Under the pieces are notes generated by a model that searched no databases, was not told where the DNA came from, and was given only the letters and a program-made list of their open reading frames with translations. A program made the translations under genes and the position numbers. Below, piece after piece: positions 31,936 to 63,424 of a DNA stretch of 63,424 bases (position 1 is its first letter; every line of letters begins with the position of its first letter). Origin of the DNA: an uncultured Gemmatimonadales bacterium (lineage in GTDB: Bacteria > Gemmatimonadota > Gemmatimonadetes > Gemmatimonadales > GWC2-71-9). The stretch is from assembly GCA_963844035.1 (NCBI GenBank), contig CAWJMT010000006.1:1-63424 (forward strand), written 5' to 3'.

Positions 31936-31953
31936 TGTAACATATCTGCAACA
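31936..31953. promoter_or_regulatory. Putative sigma54-activator binding site (TGT-N12-ACA)
   Basis: TGTAACATATCTGCAACA; weak GG-N10-GC motif at 32038-32052 downstream. Confidence 0.5.
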
Positions 31954-32136
31954 GTGCGGGCTCGGGCTCCCAGCCGGGTGAAAAAATTTGGCCAGGCAAT
32001 TCCGCTTCGGAGTCGCCTGTTTCTTGCAATCCGCGCCCGGCATGTGGAACGCGGGAAGAAGGGTGAAGAGCTACGTCGGCCGGCCCCAGGCCGCCGTGAG
32101 TCCGGCTCCGCTGCCCGCGCCTGTCGCCGCGGGCAA

Positions 32137-32641
32137 ATGCCCGGGTCCTGTTCCCGGACGAATTCACCAAAGACGACGAACGATCTGCCGGCGGCCCCCA
32201 CCAGGCGCCGCGCCTTTGGCAGGGTCTCGGGCGCGTCTCACGGCTACAGCGCGTTGGGACTGCTCGCGGGGTCGGGCCTGATCTACCTCGGTGCCGTGCT
32301 GGCACCCGCCATCGCACATCCCCTCACCCCCGACCCGGCCAAGCCGGCGGCGCTGGTGCCGACGCCGCTCGAGCGCCTGGATCGGACTCGCCGACACGCT
32401 GGCCCTGGCGACTGGCGCGTTCGACCTGCGCCTGCGCCTGTTCCAAGGCCACCAGATGCAGTGTTCCGACCTCGCCCGCGGCCTCGTGGTCGTCGAGGAA
32501 CGGTGGGCGGAATACAGCGCGGCGCGGGCAGGAGTCGGAACGGTTCAAGACTCGGCCCGCATCACCCTCGACCGGACGCTGTACGCCGGCGTGGACGCCA
32601 CGGAACGCCAGTTCGAGCGCTCCAAGTGTCCGAGACCGTGA
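32137..32641 (+). CDS. Hypothetical membrane/secreted protein; frameshifted, start uncertain
   Basis: Hydrophobic segment ALGLLAGSGLIYLGAVLA, then helical C-terminus ending SKCPRP; GTGA coupling to next gene. Confidence 0.5.
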
Positions 32642-34149
32642 GCCGGCCCTCATGGAGCCGCGCGGCGCGAACCCTCGTGCTGTGCGGCATCGCGGGCGGG
32701 TGGGCGCCAGGCGGCGGCTCAGGGTACTGATCCGCTGCGCAAGACCGACGTGGTTCGCCTGCTCGCGAGCCCCGTGATCAGCCGGAGCGAGATTGCGGCG
32801 CTGATTCGGCGCAACTGCCTCGCGTTCAGCCCTACGGAGCGGGACTGGGCCGATCTGCAGAGCCTGGGAGCGGATCCGGAAGTCCTCGGCAGCGTCAGCG
32901 CCTGCACGGACCGGAGCAAAGCTCGCGAGATCGCACCCGCCAGCGCGTTCACGGTTGTCCCTCTCACCACACGCATTGTGACCCCGCCCGACACGGACGC
33001 GAGCGTTCGCATCCAGGTCAAGCGAGGCGGCATCGCAGAAGCCGGCGTCGCGCTCATACTGCGTGGTGCCAGCGACATCCAGGGTGTCACCGACCAACGT
33101 GGTATGGCTGAGTTCGCCCTGCGGGCGGGACGGGTGGCAGGCACGTATTCGCTCAGCGTCCGCCTCGCGGGGGCGGCGCCTTCGTCCCGGGACCCCGTCG
33201 TCGAACTCGTCGTCCAACCTGCCGCACCCGCAGTGGCGGAGTTCGCGCCGACCCGGGTGACCATGGACTCGGCCGACGCTGGGCCGGTGAATCTCGAGGT
33301 GGTGGTCAGGGATGCCTTTGGAAACGCGGTGCCGGGCGAGGCGGTGGGGCTGCGCGGTGAAGACCCCGAGATGAACCTGAGCCTCGAGGGGGTGCGCACC
33401 GACTCACTCGGTCGCGCCGTATTCGTGATCGCGCCCCGGACAATCCGGCGCGCGGGCCCGGTGGCGATTGTGGTGCGTGAAGCGACGCTGGCTTCACTGC
33501 GCGCGGCGTTCGCGGTTCCGGCCAGCTCGCAGAGTCGCTTTGTCGCGGGGAGCGAGCAGGTCGGCATGGCGGGAACGCAGGTGAACGCTCCGCTCGTGTT
33601 TCAGGTGAGAGCCGGGTCGGGGCGGCCGCTCGCCGGCCGCGTGGTGGCATTCACCGCTCAGAACGCCGAGGTCACGCCGGACCATGCGATTTCGGACGGA
33701 GCCGGCCTCGCTCAGGTTCAGGTGACGCTGGGGCCGAAGGCCGGCGCTGCCGTCGTGATCGCGTCCGTGGATTCAGTGCAAACGAAGGCGACGCTCGCAG
33801 GTCCAGCCTGCGGGGCCGGCCACCGTGATCATCGAGCACAATCAGGGTGCGGGTCGACGGTGGGCACCTCGCCGTTCCCGCCGATGCGCCATTCGCGCTC
33901 AGTATCTCCGCCCAGGACGAGTACGGCAACGCGGCACCCGTCGCAGGCCTCGCGCGTGTGCTCGAGCAGATGCGGAATCGGTTCAACGCGCGTTCGACGC
34001 TGCTCAGAATGGAAAGCGTGCAGTCGGACAACTGGGTGACGACGGTGACGTTCAGACCATTGCGACGGGGTACGGCGGCGTTGACGCTCGCGGATGCCAC
34101 CGTATCGGTGGACGTGGGGGGCCGCGCCGGCCCGGGTTCTAGCCGCTAG
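32638..34149 (+). CDS. Secreted protein with a small N-terminal helical domain and invasin-like Ig (Big_1) domains; frameshifted
   Basis: Signal-like N-terminus; VTDQRGMAEF, VRDAFGNAVPG, RTDSLGRAVF, ISDGAGLAQV, QDEYGN. Confidence 0.65.
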
Positions 34150-34584
34150 GCGCGACGGTCGGTCGCCGGACGCTCCGCCGCCCGCGACACCAGGGCGAGC
34201 CAGGCCGTGATCTGCGGTAGGGAAAACGGCTTGCGGAAGGTCGTGTGGTGTCCCCGTTCCAACCACACCCGCACGTCGGGGGCGTCGGCCTCGCCCGTGA
34301 TGAACGCGATGCGCCCTTCGAGGTACGGCCAGCGGTGGATGATGACGAGGTACAACGCCAGCCCCGAAATCCCCGGCAACCGGACGTCCAGCAGGATCCC
34401 ATCGGGCGACTCCGAGGCGAGCCGCGCATAGGCCGCATCGGCGTCGGCCACCGTCAGCACGCGATACCCCATCGGGGTCAGCACACTCTCGAGCGCCGAC
34501 CGGAGCGATGCGTCGTCGTCCACGATCAGGAGCGTATGCGGGAGGCCGAGCAGCGGGCCGCTTCGCCGGGGAGTGGGGGCACAT
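34146..34584 (-). CDS. Single-domain response regulator (REC)
   Basis: LLIVDDD, ILLDVRLPGISG, FITG, RKPF; TAATG coupling with the kinase. Confidence 0.85.
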
Positions 34585-35787
34585 TATTTCTGGGGGCGGC
34601 GCGTCCGCGCGCCCGCCGGGGACGCGGTGCGCGGGGGCTGACACATCGGAAGATTCAGATCGAAGTAGAAACGAGTGCCCCACCCGCGGCGGGTTTCGAC
34701 CTGTAGCTGGGAGTCCATCGCGGCCACCAGCTTCTGGCACATCGCGAGCCCGAGGCCGGTCTGCGAGAACGCCTGCTCGCTGCGCCCGGAGCTGCGCCGC
34801 AGCGGTTGATACAGGCTGCTGACGATCTCTGGATCGATGCCCCGTCCACTGTCCCGCACGGCGAACTGAATGCCGGACGGCTCCCTTCTCCTCCGTCACG
34901 ATCTCCACGTACCCCTCGCCCGTAAACTTGAGGGCGTTCGTGGTGAGGTTGAGGAGCACGCGGCTCAACGCCACGGGATGACCCATGCGATAGTCGGAGG
35001 TCGGAGGCAGCAGCCGGACGGCCAACCGCTTTTCTTCCGCGATCGGTCTCACGATATCGCGCACCGACTCGAGCATGGCGGTCACGGAGAACGGCGTCGG
35101 CTCCTTCTCCATCAGCTGGTCCCCACCGCGCGCCAACTCGATGACGTCGCTCGCGACCGAGCTGAGACCGAGTGCCGCACCGTAGATGAGGCCCAGCTGG
35201 CGACGCTGCACATCGTTCACCGGGCCGCTCTGCTCTCGCTGCAGGGTCTCCGCGAGAAACAGGATGGACGTGAGCGGTGACCGAAGGTCGTGCGCGATCG
35301 CCACGAGCAAGTCGAGCCCGTTGGTCCCCGATACGCGGTCGGAGAAATGCTGGGCCCAATCGCCCTCGGACGCTTCGCGGACGCGCTCGAGGCCTGTGAG
35401 GATCGCGGGGATCTCGGTGTGTGTGGCCCTGGCATCCGACCAGCCGCGGATCACTTCGGCGCGGAACAACTCCAGCACGCGGCGTCCGTGGACCGAGCGC
35501 AGTCGCTCGTCCACCGCGACGGCTCTGTCCTCATCGGCCTGGATCTGTTGCAGGGTTCCGGCGAGCAGGCTGACGAGGCACGCCACCTCGGCGGCATCGG
35601 CCGTGTCGCTTCCCGCGGCGTGCCAGGCCTCAATGACTCCGTCGGCCGCTATCTGAAGTACGGGCGAGAGCGGGCCGACCGGGTCGTCGCCGGCCTTGAC
35701 CACCTTCGAAAACGAATGGCCGCCCCCTCCCGAACCGGCAGCTCGGGCGCGCGCGACCTGCGGACCTGAACTTCGATTTTGCGGCAT
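34584..35787 (-). CDS. Soluble sensor histidine kinase (HisKA + HATPase_c), frameshift ~34885
   Basis: AHDLRSPLTSI, NLTTNALKFT, DSGRGI, TGLGL, GWGTRF; no TM helix seen. Confidence 0.88.
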
Positions 35788-35837
35788 TGAACCGTGATAA
35801 GGGCAGGGGTGAATATGTCCCGGCCCCGGCCAGTCCG

Positions 35838-36950
35838 CTAGACGGGAGCTTGGGGTCCACCACCCAGGAGGGTGGGATCCTGACCACGAAACCGGGGGGG
35901 GTGGAGAAACCGGTCCTGGTGGGACATGGCCGGGGTGTATTGGCGAATGTGCGGCAAGCTCGTCTCGACGCAGGCAGTCTGGAACGCCGTGGAGGCTCGG
36001 GTGAGCAGGTCCTGAGCCCGAACCCGGGTGGCACCCGCGTCGTCCACGGCCTCAAACCCTCCCCGCACCTTCACCGGCGGCACATCCGAGCCCGCGGGTG
36101 TGCGCGTCTCAACCAGCCACGCGAGCCGCTGCGCCAGCCGTGCAGCCCCGATCGCCCGGGTGCCGGGAGCGAGTACCGCGAACTCCGTCTCGCTCCAGCG
36201 CCCGATCACATCCGACAGGCGGCCGTGGTTGCGGAGCACTTTCGCAACGTGCTGCAGCACGCGCGCTCCACCGGGCGTATCCTGCTCAGGACTGGGGTCA
36301 ACGCCGAGCACGACGCATGCAAGTGACTGGTGGTGCCGCTCCGCCTCGGCCAGCAGCTCGCGCGCCCGGTACTCGATACCGCGCACCGCGTAGAGCCCGC
36401 TGACGGTGTCGAGCAGCCCGTCCGTGCGGGCCCGGTCCGCCTCCACCTTCACGCTCACGAATCCGTCGATCCTGGCGATCAGCTCCTGCGCGTTCAGCGG
36501 GAACGCCAACACGTCCCAAGCGCCGGCACGCAGGCCCGCGACGCGATGCTCGACCAAGGCAGGGGCGCCGGAGACGATGATAATCGGCGTCCCCGCCGGA
36601 ATGGTCGCGTCCTGACGGAGTCGGCGGCACGTCTCGACGGCATCGGCCTGGGGTGACCCGACGAGAATGATGTGCCACTCGCCCCCGGGGCCGACCTCCG
36701 GGGCAGGCGCGTCATCGGCCGCCTGCACCACGTCGTAGCCGGCCGGTGCGAGGATGCTCTCCAGTGCGCCCCCGCACCACTCGTCTGCCCCGACAATGAG
36801 CGCACGCCGAACGGAGGGCCGCGGTTGGTGCGAGCTCAGGATCTCTCCCCAGGCAAAAAGGGTGGTACGTGACGACGGCGCAGCGCGGGCGCGCAGCCGA
36901 TAGACACTCCGTGGGGGAGCGGCTCGGCGAGGAGAGTCGCTGATACTCAC
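35838..36950 (-). CDS. Pseudo-receiver + degenerate GGDEF protein; ends uncertain
   Basis: REC-like fold lacking the Asp (IILVG) and Lys (AFP); DTVSGLY...RLSDVIGRWSETEF. Confidence 0.8.
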   Translation of the reverse strand: MSISDSPRRAAPPRSVYRLRARAAPSSRTTLFAWGEILSSHQPRPSVRRALIVGADEWCGGALESILAPAGYDVVQAADDAPAPEVGPGGEWHIILVGSPQADAVETCRRLRQDATIPAGTPIIIVSGAPALVEHRVAGLRAGAWDVLAFPLNAQELIARIDGFVSVKVEADRARTDGLLDTVSGLYAVRGIEYRARELLAEAERHHQSLACVVLGVDPSPEQDTPGGARVLQHVAKVLRNHGRLSDVIGRWSETEFAVLAPGTRAIGAARLAQRLAWLVETRTPAGSDVPPVKVRGGFEAVDDAGATRVRAQDLLTRASTAFQTACVETSLPHIRQYTPAMSHQDRFLHPPRFRGQDPTLLGGGPQAPV

Positions 36951-37031: not shown

Positions 37032-37712
37032 TCAGGCGCTGATCATGCCCTCGCGAATCGCGTAGCGGACCAGGCCCGCGGTCGTGTGGATGTTCAACTT
37101 TTCCATGACTCGCGCTCGATGAAACTCGGCGGTTTTGACGCTGATCCCCAGCTCACCGGCGATTTTCCGTGTTGCCTTCCCTTCCGCCACCAGCTTGATG
37201 ACCTGTTGTTCCCTGGGAGTGAGCCGGTCCCCCGCCGGCGTATTCGCCGCCAAGCAGGCGTCGATGACCGCCTGAGACGCACCGGGACCGAGCGACATCC
37301 CCCCGTCCCAGACCTCCCGAATGGCCCGCAGAAGCTCGTCCGCCCCCTGGCTCTTGTCCACGAAGCCGCGCACGCCCGCCCGCAGCGCATCGAGCGCGAA
37401 CCGGCCGTCCAGTGCGGTCAGCAGCAGAACCACGGTCCGCGGGGACACGGTGGCGATCTCGCGCGCGGCATCGACCCCGTTCAACACGGGCATGGCCACG
37501 TCGAGCACGGCCACATCCGGGCGCACCTTGCGGGCCGCGTTCACCGCCGCCCGGCCGTCCGCCGCTTCGGCCACGATCTGAAGCCCCTGGAACTCCAGTA
37601 GGGCCTTCAGGCCCTGCCGGAGGGTCTGATGGTCATCGGCGAGCAGGACGCGGAGCGCTTTGCCTTTACGCGCCGCGTCGCTGCTGACGCGTCGTCGGGG
37701 TGCCGGATACAT
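37032..37712 (-). CDS. NarL/LuxR-family response regulator
   Basis: VLLADDH, VLDVAMPVLNG, LTPREQQV, LGISVKTAEFHR. Confidence 0.93.
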   Translation of the reverse strand: MYPAPRRRVSSDAARKGKALRVLLADDHQTLRQGLKALLEFQGLQIVAEAADGRAAVNAARKVRPDVAVLDVAMPVLNGVDAAREIATVSPRTVVLLLTALDGRFALDALRAGVRGFVDKSQGADELLRAIREVWDGGMSLGPGASQAVIDACLAANTPAGDRLTPREQQVIKLVAEGKATRKIAGELGISVKTAEFHRARVMEKLNIHTTAGLVRYAIREGMISA

Positions 37713-37830: not shown

Positions 37831-38613
37831 TCAGGGAGTGATCACCAGATCACCGTGATGGTGTAGATGGTGATCGGGATCGTCAGCAGAATCGCTACCG
37901 TCTGGACGGTGGTGTACCAATCGCGCTTGCCGCGGAATGTACAGCCGGTCGCCGGCACGGAGGTTGAGCGCGTCGAAGGTGCGCCCGGAGCGCACCGCGT
38001 TCTCCAGCGTGAAGCCATGCAGCACGGTCACGCCGGCGCGCTCGACGCGCGCCTTCCCGAGGTGCGCGTTCCGGGTCAGTCCGCCGGCCGCCGTCAGCGC
38101 ATCCATGATGGGCATCTCCGGCGCGAGGGCATAGAACCCCGGGTGGGCCACGTCGCCTTCGATGGCCACGCGAATCAACGGCTGCACGCTCACCACCGGC
38201 GTCCGAATGTAGCGCGCGAGTGCATAGGTCAGGCGGTCCGGAAGCTCGGTGCGCAGCACGCCCGTCAGCGGGATCACTCCGATCTGAGGCAGGCTCAGAC
38301 TCGTTCATCATCCCCACCGTGAAGGTGTCGGAGAGCTCCTTTTCGCCCTCCACGATGATCAGGATGCGGTCGCCCGGGCGGAAATCGCCGCTGTCCAGGC
38401 GCGCGCGGATCAAATTCGCTGCATCCCCGGACGCCCTCGCGCAGCTGCTGTTCCAGCATCGCGCGCGTGGCGTAGGCGGGGCCAGGATTGCCGCTGCTGC
38501 GCGGCGGCGGCGGGGAGGAATCCGAGCAACAGGCACCCGGCCACCCCCACCCACCGGGTGCCGACGACGAGGCTGCTGACAATCCCGGGCAGGACTCGGC
38601 GGCCCACCATCAT
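37831..38613 (-). CDS. Small SLBB-domain polysaccharide export protein, frameshifted
   Basis: Signal peptide, GDFRPGDRI, IPLTGVLRTEL, IEGDVAHPGFY, DALTAAGG, LRAGDRLYIP; ATGA overlap with the glmS stop. Confidence 0.75.
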
Positions 38614-40430
38614 TCGACGGTGACGCTCTTGGCGAGATTTCGCGGGCGGTCGACGTCGCAACCACGCAGTACCGCAATGTGGTACGCGAGGAGCTGTAAC
38701 GGAATTACCGTCACGAGCGGAGACAGCAGTGGGCTTGTCAGGGGAACCCGGAGCTCGTGGTCGACCAACCCGCGAAGATCGCCGTTGCCCTCGGTGGTGA
38801 TGGCGATGATGCGGCCGCCTCGCGCCTTCACTTCCTGCATGTTCGACACAACCTTGGGATAGACCTCGTCCTTCGGGGCGACGAAGACCACCGGCATCTC
38901 CTCGTCGATCAAGGCGATCGGCCCGTGCTTCATCTCGGCCGCCGGGTAGCCTTCGGCGTGGATGTAGCTGATTTCTTTCAGCTTCAGCGCCCCCTCCAAC
39001 GCCACCGGGAAGTTCACCGCCCGGCCAAGATACAAGAAATTCCGCTGGTGTGCGTACTCCTGCGCCACCGCCTGGACTTCGGATTCGAGCGCGAGTGCCT
39101 GACCGATCACGACGGGCAGATTGTTCAGCTGATCGGCGAAGGCTTCTCCCTCCGCCACCGAGAGACCGCGCTGGCGGCCGAGGTAGAGGGCGAACAGGGC
39201 CAGCGCGGCGATCTGCGAGGTGAACGCCTTGGTGGACGCCACCCCGATTTCCGGACCGGCGTGCAGGTAGATGCCCCCGTCCGCCTCCCGCGCGATGGTG
39301 CTCCCCACCACGTTCACGATGCCCAGCACGCGGGATTGGCTGGCGCGCGCCGCCCGCATCGCCTCGAGCGTGTCCGCCGTCTCTCCCGATTGGGAGATCG
39401 CCAGCGTCAGGGTGCCCGGCTGCTCGGGGTGCCGGCGGTAGCGGTACTCCGACGCATACTCTACGGCGACCGGAATGCGCGCCAGCTCCTCGATGAGGTG
39501 CCGACCCACGAGGCCGGCGTGCCACGACGTCCCGCACGCCAGAATGACGATGCGCTGCACGTCGGCACACGCCTCGGGCGTGAGGTTCAAGCCGTTCAGC
39601 CGCGCGCCTCCCTGCACCAGGCGGCCGCGCAGGGTCGCCCGCACGGTCTCCGTCTGCTCGCTGATCTCCTTGTGCATGAAGTGCTCGAAACCCCCCAGCT
39701 CGATGGCTTCGAGGTCCCAGGCAATGTCGTCCACCGCGCGCAGCTGCACGCGCTCTTCGCGGTCCAGCACGTGGTAGCCGTCCGGGGTCAGGACGGCCAC
39801 ATCCCCGTCGTCGAGGTAGACGACCGAGCGGGTGTGCTCGAGCACCGCCGAGGCGTCCGAGGCGACGAAGTACTCGTCGTCGCCCACGCCGAGCAGCACC
39901 GGAGAGCCGCGCCGCGCGACCACGATTTTTCGAGGCTCATCCGACGAGATGACGGCGAGACCGTACGTACCGTCCACGTGCTGCAGCGCGGCGATTACCC
40001 GCGCCTCGAGCGAGTCCCCCGGGGCATCCTCGATGAGATGCGCAAGGACTTCCGTGTCCGTGTCCGTTCCGATGTGGTGGCCGGCCTGCTGCAGTGCCGC
40101 CCGCAGCGTGTCGGCGTTTTCGATGATCCCGTTGTGCACGAGCGCCAAACGCCCGGTGCAATCGGTGTGCGGGTGCGCGTTGCGTCCGGTGGGCGCTCCG
40201 TGCGTCGCCCAGCGCGTATGGGCGATGCCGCACGTCCCGATCACCGGCTGCTGCGTGAGCAGCTCGTCGAGCCCGCGAACGCGTCCGGCGAGCTTGCGGG
40301 TCACGACGCCGACGCCGTTTTGGATCGCCACGCCCGCCGAGTCATAACCGCGGTACTCCAGGCGGTTCAGGCCTCTGACGAGAATGGGAGCCGCTTGACG
40401 AGATCCGAGGTAGCCGACGATGCCGCACAT
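38610..40430 (-). CDS. glmS: Glutamine--fructose-6-phosphate aminotransferase
   Basis: MCGIVG, EYRGYDSAG, HTRWATHG, SQSGETADT, VASTKAF, PRNLAKSVTVE. Confidence 0.98.
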   Translation of the reverse strand: MCGIVGYLGSRQAAPILVRGLNRLEYRGYDSAGVAIQNGVGVVTRKLAGRVRGLDELLTQQPVIGTCGIAHTRWATHGAPTGRNAHPHTDCTGRLALVHNGIIENADTLRAALQQAGHHIGTDTDTEVLAHLIEDAPGDSLEARVIAALQHVDGTYGLAVISSDEPRKIVVARRGSPVLLGVGDDEYFVASDASAVLEHTRSVVYLDDGDVAVLTPDGYHVLDREERVQLRAVDDIAWDLEAIELGGFEHFMHKEISEQTETVRATLRGRLVQGGARLNGLNLTPEACADVQRIVILACGTSWHAGLVGRHLIEELARIPVAVEYASEYRYRRHPEQPGTLTLAISQSGETADTLEAMRAARASQSRVLGIVNVVGSTIAREADGGIYLHAGPEIGVASTKAFTSQIAALALFALYLGRQRGLSVAEGEAFADQLNNLPVVIGQALALESEVQAVAQEYAHQRNFLYLGRAVNFPVALEGALKLKEISYIHAEGYPAAEMKHGPIALIDEEMPVVFVAPKDEVYPKVVSNMQEVKARGGRIIAITTEGNGDLRGLVDHELRVPLTSPLLSPLVTVIPLQLLAYHIAVLRGCDVDRPRNLAKSVTVE

Positions 40431-44400: not shown

Positions 44401-44416
44401 CGCAAGGGCGATGCCT
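44401..44416 (-). promoter_or_regulatory. Putative sigma54 -24/-12 promoter of wzc
   Basis: AGGCATCGCCCTTGCG (GG-N10-GC with TTGC). Confidence 0.6.
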
Positions 44417-46228: not shown

Positions 46229-46244
46229 CGGCGGACACATTTCT

Positions 46245-46284
46245 TGTAGCACCCCACCCACAAGCGCCGTGGCGCCGTGCGACA
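46245..46284. promoter_or_regulatory. Putative activator sites upstream of the sugar transferase
   Basis: TGTAGCACCCCACCCACA (46245-46262) plus CGTGGCGCCGTGCGACA (one base short). Confidence 0.5.
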
Positions 46285-46346
46285 AACCGGTGCCGACCCT
46301 GCTCCAAATAGCGTTGATTTGAGCCTAGCCGCCTCATCGGCGGCAG

Positions 46347-46362
46347 AGGCACGGCGCCTGCA
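46347..46362 (+). promoter_or_regulatory. Putative sigma54 -24/-12 promoter
   Basis: AGGCACGGCGCCTGCA (GG-N10-GC). Confidence 0.6.
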
Positions 46363-49922: not shown

Positions 49923-49932
49923 GGCGATTCGC

Positions 49933-52580: not shown

Positions 52581-52605
52581 ACCCGACTCGACCGGAGGTA
52601 GCGAC

Positions 52606-53689: not shown

Positions 53690-54549
53690 AGGTCGTTCTG
53701 TTCTGCGGGGGTCTCGGCATGCGGCTGCGGGACTACGCCGACAACGTGCCCAAGCCCATGGTGCCGATCGGGTATCGACCGATCATCTGGCATGTGATGA
53801 AGTACTACGCCCACTTCGGGCACAAAGACTTCATTCTGTGCCTCGGCTACCGTGGAGACATGATCAAGCACTACTTCCTCAATTATGAAGAGTGCGTCTC
53901 GAACGATTTCGTCTTGACCGACGGTGGCGCGAAGCGCGAGCTGTTGAACAGCGACATCAGCGACTGGCGCATCACGTTCGTTGAGACCGGCCTGAATTCC
54001 AACATCGGGCAGCGGCTCAAGGCGGTGGAGCCGCACCTGGCCGGCGAGGAGATGTTCCTCGCGAACTACTCGGACGGGCTCTCGGACCTCCCGTTGCCCG
54101 ATCAGATCGAGCATTTCCGGACGCACGACGCGGTGGCGAGCTTCCTGTCCGTCAGGCCGAACCTGAGTTATCACTTCGTGACCACGGACAATGGTGGTCG
54201 GGTCACGAGCTTCCGCGACATCGCGCAATCCGGTCTCCGCGTGAATGGCGGCTTCTTCGCCCTCAAGCAGGACATCTTCCGCTACATGAAGGATGGCGAC
54301 GAGCTGGTGCTGGAGCCCTTCGAACGCCTCGTGCGCGCGAAGCAGCTGCTCGCCTACGATTACGACGGCTTCTGGCTCCCCATGGACACCGCCAAGGACA
54401 AGAAGCGCATTGACGACCTGTACGCGCAGGGGAACCCACCCTGGGAGGTCTGGCGCAGGGATGCCGCAACGCCCCGAACCGACGGCCTCCGGCTTCCCTC
54501 GCGTTCTACTGCATTGCGGCCGTTGGTGCATGCTGCCTCTGACGCTTAA
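53686..54549 (+). CDS. Glucose-1-phosphate cytidylyltransferase-like
   Basis: LFCGGLGMRL, PKPMVPIG, LCLGY, NGGFF, GFWLPMDT. Confidence 0.85.
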   Translation: MKVVLFCGGLGMRLRDYADNVPKPMVPIGYRPIIWHVMKYYAHFGHKDFILCLGYRGDMIKHYFLNYEECVSNDFVLTDGGAKRELLNSDISDWRITFVETGLNSNIGQRLKAVEPHLAGEEMFLANYSDGLSDLPLPDQIEHFRTHDAVASFLSVRPNLSYHFVTTDNGGRVTSFRDIAQSGLRVNGGFFALKQDIFRYMKDGDELVLEPFERLVRAKQLLAYDYDGFWLPMDTAKDKKRIDDLYAQGNPPWEVWRRDAATPRTDGLRLPSRSTALRPLVHAASDA

Positions 54550-55191
54550 CACGCCGGCCGGCCGAGCCACACGGATCTTGTGCCTCGGCGCGCATTCGGA
54601 CGACATCGAAATCGGCTGCGGCGGGACCGCTGTTGCGGCTGCTCGCTGACCGCCCCACGACGGAAGTCCACTGGGTGGTGTTCAGCGCTGCGGGCCCGCG
54701 TGCCAACGAGGCACGCAAGAGCGCGCGGCTGTTTCTCGCCGGCGCCAAGCGGCGGCGCGTGGTGGTGAAGCGGTTCCGCGATGGCTTCTTCCCGTACGAC
54801 GGTGCCAAGATCAAGGACGCCTTCGAGGCGCTGAAGGCCATTCCAGAGCCGGACGTGATCTTCACGCACTACGGGGCCGATCGGCACCAGGATCACCGGG
54901 TGATCTCGGAGCTCACGTGGAACACGTTCCGTAACCACATGATTCTCGAGTACGAAATCCCCAAGTACGATGGGGACCTGGGCTCGCCCAACGTGTTCGT
55001 ACCGCTCGATGAGGCGACCCGGCCGCCGCAAGACGAGCCACCTCTCGTCGGCGTTTGTGTCGCAGCGGGGCAAGCAGTGGTTCTCGGATGACACGTTCGC
55101 TGGGCTGATGCGGCTGCGCGGCGTCGAAGCGTGTGCCCCGAGCGGCTATGCCGAGGCGTTCTACGCGCGCAAGGTCGTGGTCGGCGCATGA
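54530..55191 (+). CDS. PIG-L family deacetylase, frameshifted
   Basis: LGAHSDDIEIGCGG, DRHQDH, YEIPKYDGD, AEAF. Confidence 0.88.
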
Positions 55192-55979
55192 CCGGTCTAC
55201 TCTGCGGGAATTGATCCAGCGTCGCGAGCTCCTCTACATCCTCGTGTGGCGGGAGATCGCGGTGAAGTACAAGCAGTCGGTGATGGGATTCCTCTGGGCG
55301 ATCCTGATGCCCGCGCTGATCGTGATGGCGGGGATCGTCGTCAAATACGCGTTCGCCACCGTGTCCGGCCAGCCGCTCAGCAGCGCCGACATCGCGAATG
55401 TGAGCGTGAAGGCGGTTCCCTGGGCGTTCTTCGTGTCTTCGATCCGGTTCGCCACCAACAGCCTGGTCACCAATCGTGACCTGGTGACCAAGGTGTACCT
55501 GGCCCGGGAAGTCTTTCCGGTCGCCTCGGTGATGGCCCAGTTCGTGGACTTCGCCGTTGCCGCCGCCCTCCTGGCCGTGGTGCTGGTCATCGCCGGAGTG
55601 GGGTTCAGTCGTCCAGCTCATCTGGGTACCGGTCCTCGTGCTCCTGCTTGCCCTGCTCTGCATCGGCCTGGGGATCTTTCTCTCGGCCGCGAGCCTGTTC
55701 TTCCGGGACGTCAAGTACATGGTCGAGGCGGTCATTACGTTCGCCATCTTTTTCACCCCGGTGTTCTTCGACGTGGCCATGCTTCGGCAGGTGGGCGGAC
55801 ATCCTCATGCTGAATCCGGTCGCGCCGATCCTCGAGGGCCTGAGCGCCGCGGTCGTCTATCACCGCGTGCCGCCCGTCGGGTGGGTAGCGTACAGCGCTG
55901 CCGTCGGCCGCGCTGATCTGGTTCCTGGCGAACGCGTTCTTCCGGCAGGATGGAGCCCTATTTCGCGGAGACGATCTAG
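55188..55979 (+). CDS. wzm: ABC-2 polysaccharide transporter permease, frameshifted
   Basis: REIAVKYKQSVMGFLWAIL, KVYLARE, FFRDV, FTPVFF, LNPVA. Confidence 0.85.
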
Positions 55980-55987
55980 GACATCCT

Positions 55988-57214
55988 ATGAGTGACGTCG
56001 TACTCGAGATGGATCACGTCTCCAAGAAGTTCAGGCGGGGAGAGATTCACGATTCCCTGCGTGATCTCATTCCGGCCCTGACCGGCGGCATGTTGCGACG
56101 CAGCCGGCAGGGCCCACCCGACAAGCGGGAATTCTGGGCCCTGGACGACGTGTCGTTCCAGGTCCGCCGGGGAGACGCCTTCGGCATCATCGGACGCAAC
56201 GGCGCCGGCAAGAGCACGATCCTCAAGCTGCTCAGCGGCATCATGAAGCCCACGAAGGGCGCGCTCCGCGTCAAGGGCTCGCTCTCGGCTCTGATCGAGG
56301 TGAGCGCCGGGTTTCATCCGGACCTGACCGGTCGGGAGAACATCTTCTTGAGCGGCGCCATCCTCGGCATGTCGCGCGAGGCGATCCGCGCGAAGTTCGA
56401 CGAAATCGTGGAGTTCTCGGGACTCGCTGAGTTCATCGACACGCCGGTCAAACGCTACTCGTCAGGGATGTTCGCGCGCTTGGGGTTTTCCGTCGCGGCG
56501 CACGTCGAGCCGGATGTGCTGATCATCGACGAGGTCCTGAGCGTGGGCGACTACCTCTTCCAGCAGAAGTGCGTCGAGCGCATGCATACCGTCCTGGCGA
56601 ATGGCGCGACGATCGTGTTCGTGTCCCACAATCTGCGGGCCGTGTCCGACCTGTGTACCCGCAGCCTGTTGCTCAATCGCGGTCGCGCGGTGATCGATCG
56701 GGCCGACCAACGACGTCATGCAGCGCTACCTGAACGGCAGCGACGGCCCCCGGCGGCCCGCCGACCGACCAGGAAGCGTTCGTGGCTCGCACTACGGTTC
56801 GGGATGAGACCGGCGAGGGCTTTGAACTTCGAGTCCGGGACAGAAGGTCTGGGTGGACGTGGAAGTCGCCGCCCGCGTTCCGTGCCGCGGCCTGGCGGTC
56901 GTGCTCGAGTTCAGGGACGAGAACCACTACGAAGTGTTCAACACCTCGACGGAGCGTCTCGGGCATCCTGCCTTCGCGATGGAGGCGGGGGAAACGGTCC
57001 ACTGCAGCTTTCGAGCTGGACCTGCACCTGGCGCCCGGGCACCTTCAACCTGGGAGTGTCGGTATACCGGTACGACATCGCGAAGGCATACGATCGCGTG
57101 TGCCCCGCCGCGACCATCTTCGTCACCTGCGACCGCGACGTCCGCGGCGCCGTGAACCTCTACCCCACCGCGGTGGTGCACGCGGACGCGACCGGCGACT
57201 CGCCCCGGCTGTAA
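55988..57214 (+). CDS. wzt: ABC polysaccharide transporter ATPase with C-terminal Wzt-C domain, frameshifted
   Basis: FWALDDVSF, GRNGAGKST, TGREN, YSSGMFARL, IIDEVLSVGD, VSH. Confidence 0.9.
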   Translation: MSDVVLEMDHVSKKFRRGEIHDSLRDLIPALTGGMLRRSRQGPPDKREFWALDDVSFQVRRGDAFGIIGRNGAGKSTILKLLSGIMKPTKGALRVKGSLSALIEVSAGFHPDLTGRENIFLSGAILGMSREAIRAKFDEIVEFSGLAEFIDTPVKRYSSGMFARLGFSVAAHVEPDVLIIDEVLSVGDYLFQQKCVERMHTVLANGATIVFVSHNLRAVSDLCTRSLLLNRGRAVIDRADQRRHAALPERQRRPPAARRPTRKRSWLALRFGMRPARALNFESGTEGLGGRGSRRPRSVPRPGGRARVQGREPLRSVQHLDGASRASCLRDGGGGNGPLQLSSWTCTWRPGTFNLGVSVYRYDIAKAYDRVCPAATIFVTCDRDVRGAVNLYPTAVVHADATGDSPRL

Positions 57215-57260
57215 CACGCCTGCCACACTTCCAGGGAATGCCTGACGCAGGATAGCCGCA
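57210..57260. promoter_or_regulatory. Tandem putative activator sites, 33 bp apart
   Basis: TGTAACACGCCTGCCACA (57210-57227) and weaker TGACGCAGGATAGCCGCA (57243-57260). Confidence 0.5.
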
Positions 57261-57276: not shown

Positions 57277-57292
57277 GGGCATGGACCTTGCC
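57277..57292 (+). promoter_or_regulatory. Putative sigma54 -24/-12 promoter of the Big_2 lipoprotein genes
   Basis: GGGCATGGACCTTGCC (GG-N10-GC with TTGC). Confidence 0.6.
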
Positions 57293-57358: not shown

Positions 57359-58021
57359 ATGGAACGCGGACGCCTGATCTCCAAAGTCCTCACCGTCGCA
57401 TGCCTGATGGCGCTAGTCTCCTGCGGCGACCAGAGTACGGTCAGTCCGCCGCCCCCCGGCACGACGGCCACGCTCAGCGTCACTGCCGACCTGTCGGGCA
57501 CACTGGTGGCGACCGTGGTGGTGGACGTGTCGGCGGCCGACATACCGACGGCCCTGGTTTTCAACATTCCCATCGTAAACGGTGTCGCCTCCGGCACCTT
57601 CACCATCCCGGCCGGCTCGAATCGGACCATCGTGATTCGAGGCTTTGATGCCGGAGGGGTGCAGACACACACCGGGACGGTTACCACCACCGTTCAGGCG
57701 GGCAACAATGCCAGCCTGTCGCTGGTCCTGACGCCCCTGACCGGCGATCTGCCGATCACCGCGACCCTCGGGCACTACGTCGTCACCGTGACCCCGGCCT
57801 CACCCAGCTTGTTGGTGAACGGCACGGTGCAGCTCACGGGGACGATCAAGGATTCCAATAACCAGCCGGTGGTAGGGGTCGTCTCCTGGGCCACGAAGAA
57901 TCCCGGTGTGGCGATCGTCGATGCCGCGGGGCTCGTAACCGCTACCGGTGCCGGTACCACCAGCATCACGGCGGTTTACCAGGGCGTTGCGGGTACCGCT
58001 ACCGTCACCGTCACCCCGTAG
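57359..58021 (+). CDS. Lipoprotein with an N-terminal beta domain and a Big_2 domain
   Basis: AAGGAG RBS; lipobox LVSC; VTVTP...TVQLT...VSWATKNPGVAIVDAAGLVTA. Confidence 0.8.
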   Translation: MERGRLISKVLTVACLMALVSCGDQSTVSPPPPGTTATLSVTADLSGTLVATVVVDVSAADIPTALVFNIPIVNGVASGTFTIPAGSNRTIVIRGFDAGGVQTHTGTVTTTVQAGNNASLSLVLTPLTGDLPITATLGHYVVTVTPASPSLLVNGTVQLTGTIKDSNNQPVVGVVSWATKNPGVAIVDAAGLVTATGAGTTSITAVYQGVAGTATVTVTP

Positions 58022-58032: not shown

Positions 58033-59948
58033 ATGCGCCGAGGGTTCGCCGGGGCGCTCGTGGCCCTGCTCGCGCTGAGCGCGTGCGTGGACCACGAGAC
58101 CGCGGGGCCCGACATCAACGCGGGACGCGCGGTGCTGTCGATACGGGCGAACGTCGCCGGTACCGCCGTCGCGATGGTGGTGGTCGAGGTCACGGCACCC
58201 GACATCGCGACGCCGGTCGTCACGAACATCGCGACGGTCGGAGGTGTCGCCGACGGCGCCATCAGTGTCCCCGCGGGCTCGAATCGCACCATTACGCTGC
58301 GCGCCTATGATGCGGGCGGCGTGCAGACGCACACCGGATCAGCCACCCTCAACGTCCAGGCCGGGACGAACCCGGCCATCTCCATCGTGCTGGCGCCCCT
58401 CGCGGGGAGTGTGCCGATCACCGTGACGCTGGGAAGCTTCAAGGTGACGGTGACGCCGGCCACGGCCACGCTGGCGGCCGGAGACACGCTGCACCTCACC
58501 GCGACGGTGCTCGACGCCACCAACAACCCGGTCGCGGATCAGGTCACGTGGGCCACACTCGGGGCGAGCGTGGCCACGGTCGTCAGCACGGGACCGCAAA
58601 CGGCCCGCGTCACCGGCAGTGGGATCGGGACAGATCACGGTGGTCGCCGTGTATGGCGGAATCGCCGGGTCGGCGACGATCACCGTCCACACGACCGGCG
58701 GCACTGTACCCGGTCCACGTGGAAGCGGGCAAGCGCTACCTGATCGACGCCCACGGGAATCCGTTCTTGATGCAGGGCGATGCCGCCTGGTCCCTGATCG
58801 TGCAGCTGACCAACGAGCAGGCCGAGCAGTACCTCGAGGATCGGCGGCAGAAGGGGTTCAACACGGTGCTCGTGAACCTGATCGAGCACGAGTATTCCGC
58901 CAATCCCCCGAAGAATGTCTACGGCGACGCGCCCTTCCTCACGCCGGGCGACTTCTCGACACCCAATGAGGCGTACTTCGCCCACGCCGCATACGTGATC
59001 AATCTGGCGGCCCAGAAGGGCATGCTGGTCCTGCTCACCCCCGCCTACATGGGCGGCGGCGGAGGGTCCGAGGGCTGGTATCAGGAGATGGTGGCCAACG
59101 GGACGACGAAGCTGAGCAACTACGGGACCTACCTGGCCAATCGGTTCCGGTTCTACGACAACATCGTCTGGGTCGAGGGCGGCGACTACGACCCACCCGA
59201 CCTCAACCTGCTGCGCGCGATTCCCAACGCGATCCGCGCGGTGGAGCCCGAAGTGGCTGCACACCTTCCACGGGTCCCGAGGCACCTCGGCCCTGGGCTT
59301 CGCTGGGTCGCGGTGGAGCCCTGGCTGCAGCTCAACGACATCTACACGGACAGGACAGACGTCATCGCCAACGCCTTCCAGGAATACGGGCGCTCGACGA
59401 TGCCCTTCTTCCTGATCGAGGCCATCTACGAGAATGAGAATGGCGCCGGCGAGTGGACGGTGCGGCAGCAGGCCTATCAGACGGTGCTGTCAGGGGGCAC
59501 GGGGCACGATCATGGGCAATCGCCCGATCTGGCTCTTCGACACCGGCTGGCAGCTGGCACTCGATAGCCCCGGCGCGCAAGCATCGCTCGCGCACCTCCC
59601 GGCGCTCCTGGCTGGCCGCGCCTGGTGGACGATGGTGCCGGACACCAATCACACCGTGCTCACCGCCGGCGTCGGCACCGGAGCCGACGAGGCCGCGACC
59701 GCCCGGGCTAGCAACGGCTCGTTCGTCCTGGCGTACTTGCCCAGCGCGCGCGCTGTGACGATCAACATGGCACAGCTCAGCGGCCCCAACGTGGTCGCCC
59801 GCTGGTACGATCCCACCAACGGCGACCTACACGCCTGTCGCCGGCTCGCCCTTCGCGGCGAGCGGGTCCAGCAGTCTTCCCATCGGCCGGAGCGAACAGC
59901 AACGGGGACGACTATGACTGGGTGCTGGTGCTGGAGTCCTCGCCCTAA
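58033..59948 (+). CDS. Lipoprotein: Big_2 + DUF4038 (apiosidase/GH140-like) + collagen-binding-like C-terminus, frameshifted
   Basis: Lipobox LSAC; RYLIDAHGNPFLMQGDAAWSL, YLEDRRQKGFN, PNEAYF, IVWVEGGD, FFLIEAIYE, ARWYDP, DWVLVLE. Confidence 0.78.
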
Positions 59949-60003: not shown

Positions 60004-60046
60004 CGTGTTATGGGTCACCGACCCAAATCCACACCGCGGCCATCTT
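60004..60046 (+). promoter_or_regulatory. CRP/FNR-like box plus -10-like CATCTT (class II geometry)
   Basis: CGTGT-TATGGG-TCACC at 60004-60019; CATCTT at 60041-60046; block conserved at 62419-62462. Confidence 0.45.
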
Positions 60047-60151: not shown

Positions 60152-60190
60152 ATCGACGAAGCTCAACCCACGTCGAATGGTGGCCTGACG

Positions 60191-62325
60191 ATGACCTTCA
60201 AACACAAGCTGTCGCGTCGACTCGCCTCCATGAGGGGTGCGCCATGGCTCGTTGCATCCACCGTCGCGCTCGGGTCGTGCGAGGTGCCCATCGCCACCCC
60301 CACTGATCCAAGTCACCAGGTCGTCCAGGTCGTCGTCGTCCCCGAAAGTGTCAGCGTCGATCCACTGCAACAGATGAAGTTTGCGGCCTATGGCCGCACC
60401 GCGCAGCGGCGACAGCTCGGCTGTCACCGTCACCTGGAGCGCAACCGGCGGCCAGCATCACGCCCGACGGAATGTTCGCCGCCGATACCGCGGCCGGAGA
60501 CTTCGTGGTCTCGGGTGCCAGCGCCCCGCTCCAGCTTTCGGCGTCTTCACGGGTACGCGTCCGGCAGCGCGCCGTCGCAACGGTGAGCGTGAGTCCGGCG
60601 TCGGCGAGTGTGCCAGCCGGGCAGACGGTGCAGCTCACGGCGACCCCGCGGGATGCGAGCGGGAACGCGCTCACGGGCCGGGTCGTGACGTGGGCCAGCA
60701 ATAGCACCGCCGTCGCGACGGTGAGTGGCGAGCGGGCTCGTGACCGGCGTGAGCGCCGGGTCGGCGACGATCACGGCCACGAGCGAAGGGAAGAGCGGCA
60801 CGGCGGCGGTCACCGTGACGTTGGCGCCGGTCGCGTCGGTGAGCGTGAGTCCGGCGTCGGCGAGCGTGGCGGCGGGACAGACGGTGCAGCTCACGGCGAC
60901 GCCGCGCGATGCGAGTGGCAACGCGCTGGCCGGGCGGGTGTGACTTGGGCGAGCAGCAACACGGGCGGTGGCGACCGTGAACGGCAGCGGCCTGGTGACC
61001 GGCATCGCCGTCGGGTTGGCCACGATCACGGCGACGAGCGAGGGGAAGAGCGGCACCGCGGCGCGTCACCGTGGTGCCGGTCGCGTCAAACGCGGCCTTT
61101 CCGCTCCACGTGGATGCGGGGAAGCGCTACCTGGTCGACGCGCAGGGGAATCCCTTCCTGCTGCGGGGCGACGCCCCGTGGTCGCTGATCGTGCAGCTGA
61201 CCAACGCAGAAGCCGAGCAGTACCTCGAGGATCGGCGGCAGAAGGGGTTCAACACCGTGCTCGTGAACCTGATCGAGCACCAGTTTTCCGCCAATCCTCC
61301 GAAGAATGTCTACGGCGACGCGCCCTTCCTCACGCCGGGCGACTTCTCGACGCCCAACGAGGCGTACTTCGCCCACGCCGCCTACGTGATCAATCTGGCG
61401 GCCCAGAAGGGCATGCTGGTCCTGCTCACCCCCGCCTACATGGGGGCCGGCGGAGGGTCCGAGGGCTGGTATCAGGAGATGGTGGCCAACGGGACGACGA
61501 AGCTCAGCAACTACGGGACCTATCTGGCCAATCGCTTCCGGGCCTACGACAACATCGTCTGGGTCGAGGGCGGCGACTACAACCCGCCCAACCTCACCCT
61601 CCTGCGCGCCATTCCCAACGCGATCCGCGCGGTGGAGCCCGAAGTGGCTGCACACCTTCCACGGGTCCCGGGGCACCTCGGCCCTGGGCTTCCTGGGCAC
61701 GGCGGAGCCCTGGCTCCAGGTCAATGACATCTACACGGATCAAACGACCGTCGTGGCCAAGGCCTTCCAGGAATACGGCCGCTCGACGATGCCCTTCTTC
61801 CTGATCGAGGCCATCTACGAGGGCGAGGGTGCCAGCGAGGCGGCGGTGCGGCAGCAGGCGTATCAGACGGTGCTGTCAGGGGGCACGGGGCACGTCATGG
61901 GCAACCGCCCGATCTGGCTGTTCGGCAGCGGCTGGCAAACGGCGCTCAACAGCCGCGGGGCACGCACACTCTCGTACCTCCCGGCGCTGCTGACCGGCCG
62001 CGCCTGGTGGACGCTGGTGCCGGACATCGCTCACACCGTGCTCACCGCCGGCGTCAGCACCGGGAGCGACCAGGCCGCGACCGCCCGGGCGAGCGACGGC
62101 TCGTTCGTCCTCGCGTACCTGCCGAGCGCGCGCTCGGTGACGGTCAACCTGGCGCAGCTCAGCGGCCCCAATGTGGTCGCCCGCTGGTATGATCCCGCCA
62201 ACGGCACTTACGCGACCATCGCCGGCTCGCCCTTCGCGGCGAGCGGGACACGCACCTTCGCATCGGCCGGGGCGAACAGCAGCGGCTTCAGCGACTGGGT
62301 CCTGGTGCTCGAGTCCTCGCCGTAA
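60191..62325 (+). CDS. Lipoprotein: tandem Big_2 repeats + DUF4038 (GH140-like) + collagen-binding-like C-terminus, frameshifted
   Basis: Lipobox LGSC; VSVSPASASV.AGQTVQLTATPRDASGN x2; catalytic module near-identical to 58705-59948. Confidence 0.78.
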
Positions 62326-62418
62326 GGCGCTAAGCCTCGCATCACCGATCGCCCGGCGGGGCGTCCGTTGATCGGTCACGCCGTCCCAGTAAGACCCCCG
62401 ACACATTACCACAACGAT

Positions 62419-62462
62419 CGTGTTGTGGGTCACTGATCCAAACCTCCACTCATCGCCATCTT
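62419..62462 (+). promoter_or_regulatory. Second CRP/FNR-like box plus CATCTT
   Basis: CGTGT-TGTGGG-TCACT at 62419-62434; CATCTT at 62457-62462. Confidence 0.45.
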
Positions 62463-62651
62463 CGCACCCAGTTCTTCGCAAGCAGGTGGCACGCCGATGT
62501 CGATAATCCAGTTGGACGACATCCACACGGGCGATTGGACGCCGCAATTCCTCAGGTATCTTGCGTGCGTCGGCGCGCCACGTGCTCCGCGATGTGCCGA
62601 TCATCGCTTGAGACGGTGCCTAGATCGTAGGTCGGAGTTCTTCAGTACTAC

Positions 62652-62742
62652 CGCTGCCAAGAGCATAGCCGCCGAAAGGCGGTGACGCAGAGCTACGGGA
62701 CTACCGCGAGTCACGCTCGCCATGTCCGCCGGGCCGCCAGCG
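62652..62742 (+). ncRNA. GEMM-I (c-di-GMP-I class) riboswitch aptamer, A20 variant (second copy)
   Basis: Same architecture as 60060-60151; the three stem substitutions only exchange Watson-Crick and G-U pairs. Confidence 0.87.
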
Positions 62743-62748
62743 ATCGAC

Positions 62749-62789
62749 GAAGCGGGAAGCACGTCGAATGGTGGTCCGCTTCTTTTCTT
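62749..62789 (+). terminator. Putative intrinsic terminator in the riboswitch expression platform
   Basis: GAAGCGG (62749-62755) pairs with CCGCTTC (62776-62782), followed by TTTTCTT. Confidence 0.55.
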
Positions 62790-62813
62790 GGTGGACAACG
62801 GTGGGAGCCTACC

Positions 62814-63424
62814 ATGACCTTCAGTCGCACGCCGTCGCGTCGTTTCGCGCTCATGCGGGATGCACTGTTACTGCTTGTGTCCGTCTTCGCGTTCGGGTCG
62901 TGCGACACTCCCACTGCCCCACTCCCAGAGTATCGGTGGTACCTACCAGCGTCCCGTCGCAACCGTGCGCGTGAGCCCGACCTCGGCAAGTGTGATGGCG
63001 GGACAGACGGTCCAGCTCACTGCGACCCTGCGAGACGCCTACGGAAACAGACTCACCGGCCGCGTGGTGACCTGGACAACGAGCAATGCGGCCGTAGCGA
63101 CGGTGAGCAATATCGGGTTAGTGACGGGCGTGGCTGCCGGCTCAGCCACGATCACCGCCACGAGCGAGGGGAAGAGCGGGACCTCGGCCGTTACGGTGAC
63201 GGCGGTGCCAGTGGCATCGGTGAGCATGAGTCCGGCCTCCGGCAGTGTGCCGGTGGGACAGACACTCCAGATCACCGCCACCCCGCGGGATACGGGCGGC
63301 AGCGCGCTCACCGGCCGAGTGGTGACCTGGACCAGCAGCGATGCGGGCGTCGCAACCGTGAGCGGCAGCGGGTTGGTGACCGGCGTGGCCGCCGGATCCG
63401 CCACCATCACGGCGACGAGCGAGG
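62814..63424 (+). CDS. Lipoprotein with tandem Big_2 repeats (3'-truncated by window edge, frameshift ~62935)
   Basis: GGGAG RBS; MTFSRTPSRRF...FAFGSC lipobox; GQTVQLTATLRDAYGNRLTGRVVTWTTSN repeats. Confidence 0.8.
   Translation, partial: MTFSRTPSRRFALMRDALLLLVSVFAFGSCDTPTAPLPEYRWYLPASRRNRAREPDLGKCDGGTDGPAHCDPARRLRKQTHRPRGDLDNEQCGRSDGEQYRVSDGRGCRLSHDHRHERGEERDLGRYGDGGASGIGEHESGLRQCAGGTDTPDHRHPAGYGRQRAHRPSGDLDQQRCGRRNRERQRVGDRRGRRIRHHHGDER

Follow-up and report, generated by a model that had tools for sequence, protein, structure and literature searches.

The window analysed here is an entire contig of 63,424 nucleotides (CAWJMT010000006.1) from an uncultured Gemmatimonadales bacterium. Its second half carries an exopolysaccharide (EPS) superlocus that probably has two control layers: a sigma54 regulon, and Big_2 surface-enzyme genes under predicted cyclic GMP-AMP (cGAMP) riboswitches. 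Judging from sequence comparison with relatives, the system is real and conserved, and combines a putative PrsR-like EPS regulon with predicted Hypr/GEMM-Ib signalling. An earlier note on this DNA had proposed one second-messenger-controlled circuit linking EPS synthesis to surface proteins. The cyclic-dinucleotide components do lie in the same superlocus as a conserved sigma54 regulon, but the riboswitch-led genes form a layer of their own, because they have a CRP-like site and lack the sigma54 box; a single circuit is not supported.

To our knowledge, almost nothing is known of regulation in Gemmatimonadota. Here a candidate synthase and RNA readers come with a definite output, the surface glycan enzymes beside EPS genes. 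Control of EPS and PEP-CTERM genes by a PrsR-like sigma54 system would be extended beyond Proteobacteria, the regulon would persist without an exosortase, and a predicted new family of I-site-only receptors is defined. If the ligand is assigned correctly, riboswitch-read cGAMP signalling reaches a new phylum and is tied to matrix remodelling. The available portions of the literature on Gemmatimonad* with cGAMP, cyclic di-GMP (c-di-GMP) riboswitches or PEP-CTERM (including PMC11406998) hold no description of such a system; earlier supplements may list Gemmatimonadota sequences.

Probable sigma54 regulon of the EPS genes

The source genome is labelled G000 (3.47 Mb, completeness 83.7%); the window is its contig C6, and the other contigs are labelled C2, C27 and so on. 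For two G000 proteins, most of the named homologues carry the label Gemmatimonadales or Gemmatimonadetes, and the Atlas clusters are largely Gemmatimonadota. Further G-numbers denote relative genomes, L-numbers the fetched relative loci, and f- and g-numbers families and genera. A conserved sigma54 regulon very probably ties the EPS export and priming genes to one Big_2 lipoprotein gene. The sigma54 activator named in the earlier note was confirmed as a REC-AAA-HTH8 protein (44790-46311) with the receiver Asp present and GAFTGA intact, and rpoN is present in the genome. Each of the window boxes at 31936, 44477, 44519, 46245 and 57210 is followed after 49-102 nt by a -24/-12-like element. A matrix was trained on 19 sites, all of them from relatives. 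In 31001-63424 it matches 5 sites where 0.46 would be expected (100 Markov simulations gave at most 3), and in the whole genome 58 where about 30 would be. Pairs of a box and a -24/-12-like element number 11 genome-wide against 1 expected from 3.4 Mb of Markov sequence, an optimistic ratio because the -24/-12 search pattern was devised after the sites had been seen. On the genome-wide frequency check that the earlier note had set, the bare TGT-N12-ACA palindrome (12 copies in the window) fails: it is not enriched, with 378 copies against 355 for N9 and 372 for N15 spacing.

The synteny set covered up to 20 kb around 20 matches of the degenerate REC-GGDEF proteins, 18 of the 41063 type (17 genomes, three families) and two of the 35838 type. 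Among the 18 loci, the activator, the histidine kinase and the priming transferase were found in 17, Wzc in 16 and Wza in 15; the HisKA-HATPase kinase adjoins the activator in most relatives, and in 17 of the 18 the dead GGDEF has wzc or the activator as its neighbour. The gene block proposed earlier was thus conserved in its activator, kinase and Wzc, but not throughout: glmS is present in 5/18 loci, the lone receiver of the 34146 type in 0/20, and the NarL regulator is a family-level neighbour, occurring only in the two 35838-type loci of the 20-locus set and in G081 and G089.

The boxes are kept together with these genes. A box precedes wzc in 7/10 relative loci, a GG-N10-GC element being present in 8/10, and a box precedes the priming transferase in 10/17; in the other seven the transferase is operon-internal, directly behind wza. 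Over 380 kb of relative superloci the boxes have a density of 0.095/kb, compared with 0.017/kb for the whole of G000; of the 36 boxes in those superloci, 15 are paired with a -24/-12 element. In G081 and G089, box and -24/-12 element also stand before the orthologue of lipoprotein 57359, and the relative locus L095 has a box at a distance similar to that of the 31936 box. As boxes and elements are retained in relatives, a small sigma54 regulon reaching one Big_2 operon is the predicted arrangement. The palindrome and -24/-12 motifs reported before wzc, the transferase and the Big_2 lipoproteins hold for the first two and for one lipoprotein: 57359 alone among the four Big_2 genes has both directly upstream (58033 starts 11 nt after it), and neither is found upstream of the two riboswitch-led genes.

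The RpoN box of the G000 RpoN protein looks canonical. At about 110 nt past the transferase box, seven of the ten boxed loci (L076-L086) show a sigma54 element CGCAY-N5-TTGC, with C and not G at -25. Box and -24/-12 pairs also occur at C2:51662, 79062 and 83213, in a second EPS/Big_2 cluster of G000. Scanning 57000-63424 for sigma70 and terminator consensus sequences gave background levels.

Riboswitch-led Big_2 genes

The two A20 GEMM-I riboswitches of the earlier note were borne out by RF01051 matches at 60061-60150 and 62652-62741 (56.8 and 51.7 bits, gathering threshold 35), both with A20, A47 and C92. Positions 47, 48 and 92 are given in what we take to be Vc2 numbering. Position 20 follows the Vc2 numbering in the available text of PMC6140456. 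Five of the nine c-di-GMP-I aptamers in G000 have A20, and all five precede Big_2 genes (C6, C2). Over the 201 genomes used for order-level counts, the A20 pattern occurs in 44 and the G20 pattern in 93, the latter tally including G107, which enters no other claim made here; a false A20 match in G132 (L064) and non-GGDEF matches of the Hypr pattern were dropped beforehand, and for G092 and the second matches of G003 and G148 the count used only the bases matched. A20 is mostly accompanied by G at position 48, which covaries. In 22/30 fetched A20 loci this A20/G48 subtype leads a gene whose product begins like a lipoprotein. Eight of the proteins so led were scanned: Big_2 was found in seven and weak PL14 in three, and the two window proteins carry apiosidase-like heads. 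The window gene at 60191..62325 has 89% DNA identity to the copy at 58033..59948.

The A20/G48 leaders have the layout predicted for an ON switch. A significant downstream complement to the aptamer 3' strand was found in 21/29 of them (17 with a U-tract) versus 1/12 other aptamers. The helix at 62652 has a U-tract and is not itself significant (p=0.11); this leader is predicted to be a terminator-type ON switch. The helix at 60061 is significant (p=0.02), and because it ends 3 nt before the ATG and has no U-tract, a translational ON switch is suggested. CRP-like boxes occur in the -100..-40 window of 13/26 leaders versus 45/497 control windows. The CRP-like boxes earlier placed on the Big_2/DUF4038 genes were upheld at 60004 and 62419, before the riboswitch-led genes. 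A CRP-family gene lies on C35; the CRP-like gene C2:89734, standing among unrelated genes near a contig end, was not assigned to the boxes.

In 12 relatives (G004, G016, G031, G054, G081, G084, G089, G110, G134, G136, G191, G195) an A20 switch lies on the same contig as a dead REC-GGDEF gene, at most 52 kb away. A20 and G20 aptamers also stand in tandem, in the order A20 then G20, in 10 tandems of 6 genomes; this ordering suggests different ligands. One such arrangement, at C2:70736-71035, has an A20 aptamer with a terminator and, after it, a G20 aptamer next to the ribosome site. Table 2 of the tandem-riboswitch survey, in the part of PMC9481103 available, gives no cGAMP/c-di-GMP pair, which could hide among its 347 c-di-GMP-I doublets. 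The riboswitch-led lipoproteins share an N-terminal M-[TP]-[FY]-x-[HYF]-K-L-[SA]-x-R-L (window 60191; C2:65180, C2:67894; L049-L072), found behind the A20 switch in 3/3 cases in G000 and in 14/16 further distinct proteins of the fetched loci, a biased set; this extension is possibly an export signal. At C5:42113-42195 a G20 riboswitch precedes a type IV pilin gene.

Probable ligand and candidate synthase

The signal cGAMP is known chiefly from Geobacter-like bacteria, and signalling by it through Hypr-GGDEF enzymes and riboswitches has been characterized in Geobacter, Myxococcus and Bdellovibrio. Among 19 GGDEF matches in G000, one, the match at C27:68717, has Ser where cyclases have Asp. This MASE1-GGDEF protein (C27:68675-70081, L010:6676-8082; outside the window) has Geobacter GmGacA 6D9M as its best PDB match, with Y304, S348 and GGDEF aligned. 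In the available part of PMC6456294, Hypr enzymes are marked by Ser/Thr at 348, GGDE[F/Y] with Asp, and a non-Arg residue at 304; the C27 enzyme bears all three marks. Its 120 homologues have S (98), T (2) or N (20) at position 348, Y at 304 in 114, and GGDEF in all; the close ones are named Gemmatimonadales, also Vicinamibacteria and Binatia. MASE1-Hypr proteins form a 100/99 clade across three families.

The C27 protein is a plausible candidate cGAMP synthase. Family-level co-occurrence was counted over 86 genomes, and MASE1-Hypr was found in 17 of the 26 with an A20 switch versus 4 of the 60 without. Given this co-occurrence and the three Hypr marks, cGAMP would on balance be the likely working ligand of the A20 switches. 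No CD-NTase/SMODS protein was found in G000 as another cGAMP source. A GGDEF protein with N348, F304 and a Cys-rich N-terminus (C4:128837-129307), sister to the MASE1-Hypr clade (96/87), is a possible second source. In G000 the RxxQ form of HD-GYP, RxxQ/N being the mark of cGAMP-specific HD-GYP domains in the text available of 10.1101/600031, occurs in the C11/C25 and C12 proteins. C11:1-8513 and C25:32443-40956 share 8.5 kb at 93% identity, including the RxxQ REC-HD-GYP gene, which is either a duplication or strain mixture.

As far as the accessible accounts of Geobacter GacA and GEMM-Ib go, the likeness lies in a Hypr GGDEF with S348, Y304 and GGDEF and in A20 GEMM-I ON switches before surface-protein genes. 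The differences are a MASE1 membrane sensor here instead of a receiver domain, predicted Ig-stalk glycan enzymes in an EPS locus instead of electron-transfer genes as targets, a covarying G48 in the aptamer, and another phylum.

Degenerate REC-GGDEF proteins

Both window REC-GGDEF proteins have lost GGDEF (SETEF, GAGTF) and keep RxxD, as the earlier note had it of two catalytically dead proteins. In the best 120 of 1262 homologues of the 41063 protein, R208 and D211 are kept in 120/120 and R239 has a conservation of 1.0; the GGDEF positions are variable and the metal-binding Asp is absent. R208/D211/R239 align with PleD R359/D362/R390, presumably the I-site residues, while PleD R313 is not kept. 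The receiver domain has neither the acidic pocket nor the conserved Lys; in the 35838 copy the phosphoacceptor Asp is missing as well. These I-site-only proteins are likely, by the residues they retain, to be c-di-GMP receptors. At E<=1e-25, the family was found in 74/151 genomes of the phylum, all of the same class, and in 0/44 genomes of the seven most distant families.

PopA, PelD and SgmT are I-site-only GGDEF receptors, and PelD controls EPS. Here, too, a degenerate active site goes with a conserved RxxD and distal Arg, but the architecture is a single pseudo-receiver plus GGDEF and the family is class-restricted. At the eps locus of Myxococcus xanthus (EpsI/Nla24), EPS likewise depends on an NtrC-like activator controlled by a cyclic dinucleotide; there, in the available part of PMC4877007, the activator itself binds c-di-GMP, whereas the candidate receptors here are separate REC-GGDEF proteins. 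In G031 (C15:51622, L150) a G20 riboswitch directly heads the degenerate REC-GGDEF gene, a possible feedback.

Exosortase and PEP-CTERM genes of relatives

The locus is, as predicted from its relatives, an exosortase-type EPS locus working like PrsK-PrsR, of which G000 would be an exosortase-less variant, because relatives have exosortase/EpsI after the transferase and boxed PEP-CTERM genes. The absence of exosortase and PEP-CTERM tails from the window, as noted earlier, extends to the whole G000 assembly (83.7% complete), where no exosortase, EpsI or PEP-CTERM tail was found. PEP-CTERM matches were 0 by a profile search whose control also matched nowhere, and 0 by a tail scan; a similar scan recovered 15 PEP-CTERM genes in relatives. 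The site after the priming transferase in G000 is contiguous and occupied by another gene, not by an exosortase.

Exosortase is present in 78/201 order genomes. Exosortase and dead REC-GGDEF could both be placed in 37 genomes; in 24 of these they are no more than about 10.5 kb apart, the exosortase typically standing immediately after the priming transferase. In G195, EpsH and EpsI stand at the locus, TIGR02602 and TIGR02914 being passed. PEP-CTERM genes were found in 5/5 exosortase-positive relatives tested. Among the 15 distinct PEP-CTERM genes parsed, five have a box score >=13, and in seven a -24/-12-like element lies 60-95 nt upstream of the start. No exosortase was found in G000 or genera g30, g33 and g31, and we infer that it was lost rather than never gained in the G000 lineage.

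Haft et al. (2006; PMC1569441), in the part available, describe PEP-CTERM/EpsH-PrsK-PrsR-PrsT loci with an NtrC-like activator and kinase near EPS genes and a short motif, a 17-mer ending TTTACA, 32-92 nt before a sigma54 site; the upstream motif was found only in Proteobacteria. The present locus resembles these in its NtrC-like activator and kinase near EPS genes, in the 49-102 nt spacing already given, and in the EpsH-family exosortase, EpsI and boxed PEP-CTERM genes of relatives. It differs in its box, an 18-nt TGT..ACA palindrome, and in its activator, which scores 360.1 bits against the PrsR family TIGR02915 (best of 93 NCBIfam families), below the cut-off of 502.6. The kinase has no membrane segment apparent in its translation, and no PrsK family is among the 18 NCBIfam matches. 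G000 is without exosortase and PEP-CTERM, with dead REC-GGDEFs and riboswitches added. The analogy with PrsK/PrsR drawn earlier thus appears sound as to the working of the locus, but too modest, since relatives carry exosortase and boxed PEP-CTERM genes at the same place.

Proposed mechanism and alternative explanations

In the first layer, the soluble kinase would phosphorylate the PrsR-like activator, which would bind the TGT-N12-ACA boxes and open the sigma54 promoters of wzc, of the priming transferase and sugar genes, and of one Big_2 lipoprotein operon, and of PEP-CTERM genes too in exosortase-bearing relatives. The I-site-only REC-GGDEFs would bind c-di-GMP and tune this pathway. In the second layer, a CRP-type activator would drive the riboswitch leaders, and ligand on the A20 aptamer would block the overlapping terminator or ribosome-site helix and so turn expression on. 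The output would be Ig stalks anchored as lipoproteins and bearing heads that act on glycans, apiosidase-like here and PL14-like in several relatives, and the cGAMP would come from the unlinked MASE1-Hypr GGDEF on C27. Polymer synthesis would thereby be tied to c-di-GMP and phosphorylation, and remodelling or release to cGAMP. A fuller two-messenger matrix programme, in which c-di-GMP gates the exosortase-derived sigma54 regulon, cGAMP switches on the Ig-stalk enzymes and A20-G20 tandems act as AND gates, can be offered tentatively, its chances being somewhat below even.

Several points weigh against this scheme. The box is assigned to the block's own activator by linkage, we infer, and that activator is one of eight sigma54 activators in G000; nothing physically ties the dead GGDEFs to it. 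In single-contig G158 the riboswitch is unlinked to the block. The co-occurrence counts treat kin as independent although they are related, and at genus level the association is weak (both 6, A20 only 5, Hypr only 4, neither 19; p=0.045). Among the GGDEFs examined, 9 of the 26 A20 family genomes have no S-type MASE1 enzyme, three of the nine carrying the N348 sister enzyme, and in family f3 the Hypr pattern occurs in 12/27 genomes and the A20 switch in only 2. RxxQ HD-GYP was rejected as a marker of the system, being present in 76/86 family genomes and so not tracking it. Nor does A20 fix the ligand: Vc2 G20A binds both dinucleotides, at 53 and 120 nM, and bispecific aptamers occur among natural A20 ones (PMC6140456, in the portion available).

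The last point leads to an explanation by c-di-GMP throughout: in vivo the A20 aptamers would sense c-di-GMP, with dual specificity or lower affinity, the S348 enzyme would be either a cyclase or of no relevance to them, and the locus would be a conventional c-di-GMP biofilm locus with a sigma54 activator, like that of Myxococcus eps. It would account for the A20 genomes lacking the S-type enzyme and draws on the ability of A20 aptamers to bind c-di-GMP in the same partly available source, on the many canonical GGDEFs of G000, and on G033, where about 30 kb separate G20 aptamers from the block. The retention of both aptamer types in a fixed tandem order, the complete Hypr marks of the C27 enzyme and the presence of MASE1-Hypr in only 1/24 family genomes with G20 but no A20 make it unlikely. 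Co-location without integration, in which EPS, surface-lipoprotein and signalling genes would simply cluster in one surface-gene superlocus, with the sigma54 regulon and the riboswitch genes independent and the dead GGDEFs acting on something else, is somewhat unlikely: the riboswitch leaders without box and -24/-12, the unlinked arrangement in G158 and the varying lipoprotein heads and gene order agree with it, but the dead GGDEF keeps its place beside wzc or the activator, in G031 it is itself headed by a G20 switch, and the window interleaves box-bearing and switch-bearing Big_2 genes.

The earlier note had Big_2 scaffolds, anchored as lipoproteins, stand in place of PEP-CTERM proteins. As an independently evolved analogue with Big_2 lipoproteins as the EPS surface partners, this is very unlikely. 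The genomes without exosortase would suit it, since A20 switches are plentiful in g30 and g33, and the g30 Big_2 orthologue is boxed. The replacement was rejected because exosortase and A20 Big_2 genes coexist without exclusion (7/26 family genomes with an A20 switch versus 24/60 without; p=0.33), and the nearness of exosortase to the dead REC-GGDEF in relatives speaks against a separate origin. The two-layer arrangement of an exosortase-type locus is the preferred reading.

Features of the window

The gene labels of the window were borne out by Pfam. Single-base indels interrupt many of them. These are most likely errors of assembly, as the same genes are unbroken in relatives. Among the sequencing runs listed there was no RNA run, and four DNA runs yielded short pieces of related strains only; one contig from them does not have the additional base found at 60404, which hints weakly at the same.

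Table 1. Features of the superlocus, in window coordinates
Feature	Position	Strand
TGT-N12-ACA box, matrix score 16, before ORF (open reading frame) of no assigned function and Big_1 gene	31936..31953	.
-24/-12-like element, non-canonical (CG..GC), weak	32013..32027	+
Secreted Big_1/invasin-like protein, frameshifted	32654..34142	+
Single-domain receiver	34146..34523	-
HisKA-HATPase kinase, H-box intact, frameshifted	34584..35787	-
Degenerate REC-GGDEF 1 (pseudo-receiver without phosphoacceptor Asp, RxxD kept, SETEF)	35838..36950	-
NarL/LuxR response regulator, neighbour at family level	37032..37712	-
Wza/SLBB polysaccharide export protein, frameshifted, 5' end approximate	37831..38600	-
GlmS	38610..40430	-
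Degenerate REC-GGDEF 2 (R208, D211, R239; GAGTF)	41063..41986	+
Wzc (Wzz + GNVR + tyrosine kinase), frameshifted	41983..44388	-
Sigma54 -24/-12 element for wzc	44402..44416	-
Two TGT-N12-ACA boxes between wzc and activator	44477-44494 and 44519-44536	.
Sigma54 enhancer-binding protein REC-AAA-HTH8	44790..46311	+
TGT-N12-ACA box before priming transferase, overlapping activator ORF tail in present assembly	46245..46262	.
Sigma54 -24/-12 element for priming transferase	46347..46361	+
Priming polyprenyl glycosylphosphotransferase, frameshifted	46398..47100	+
Nucleotide-sugar and modification genes, wzt-type ABC transporter genes	47205..57214	+
TGT-N12-ACA box, score 17	57210..57227	.
Sigma54 -24/-12 element for Big_2 lipoprotein 57359	57277..57291	+
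Big_2 lipoprotein	57359..58021	+
Lipoprotein, Big_2 + apiosidase-like (DUF4038) + collagen-binding-type domain, frameshifted, fusion inferred	58033..59948	+
CRP/FNR-like box, 67 nt upstream of A20	60004..60019	.
GEMM-I aptamer (A20=60071, C92=60146) + anti-aptamer helix	60061..60187	+
Lipoprotein, Big_2 repeats + apiosidase-like + collagen-binding-type domain, frameshifted	60191..62325	+
CRP/FNR-like box, 243 nt upstream of A20	62419..62434	.
GEMM-I aptamer (A20=62662, C92=62737) overlapping helix + U-tract	62652..62790	+
Big_2-repeat lipoprotein, cut by contig end	62814..63424	+

Positions 1-30300 of the window hold a second polysaccharide cluster with its own Wza, a Wzc-like protein and two priming transferases; no intergenic box was found in it, the sole matrix match being weak and coding, at 23191. 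At 50529-52580, one ORF joins DUF4910 and a carbon-nitrogen hydrolase, as a fusion or an assembly artefact.

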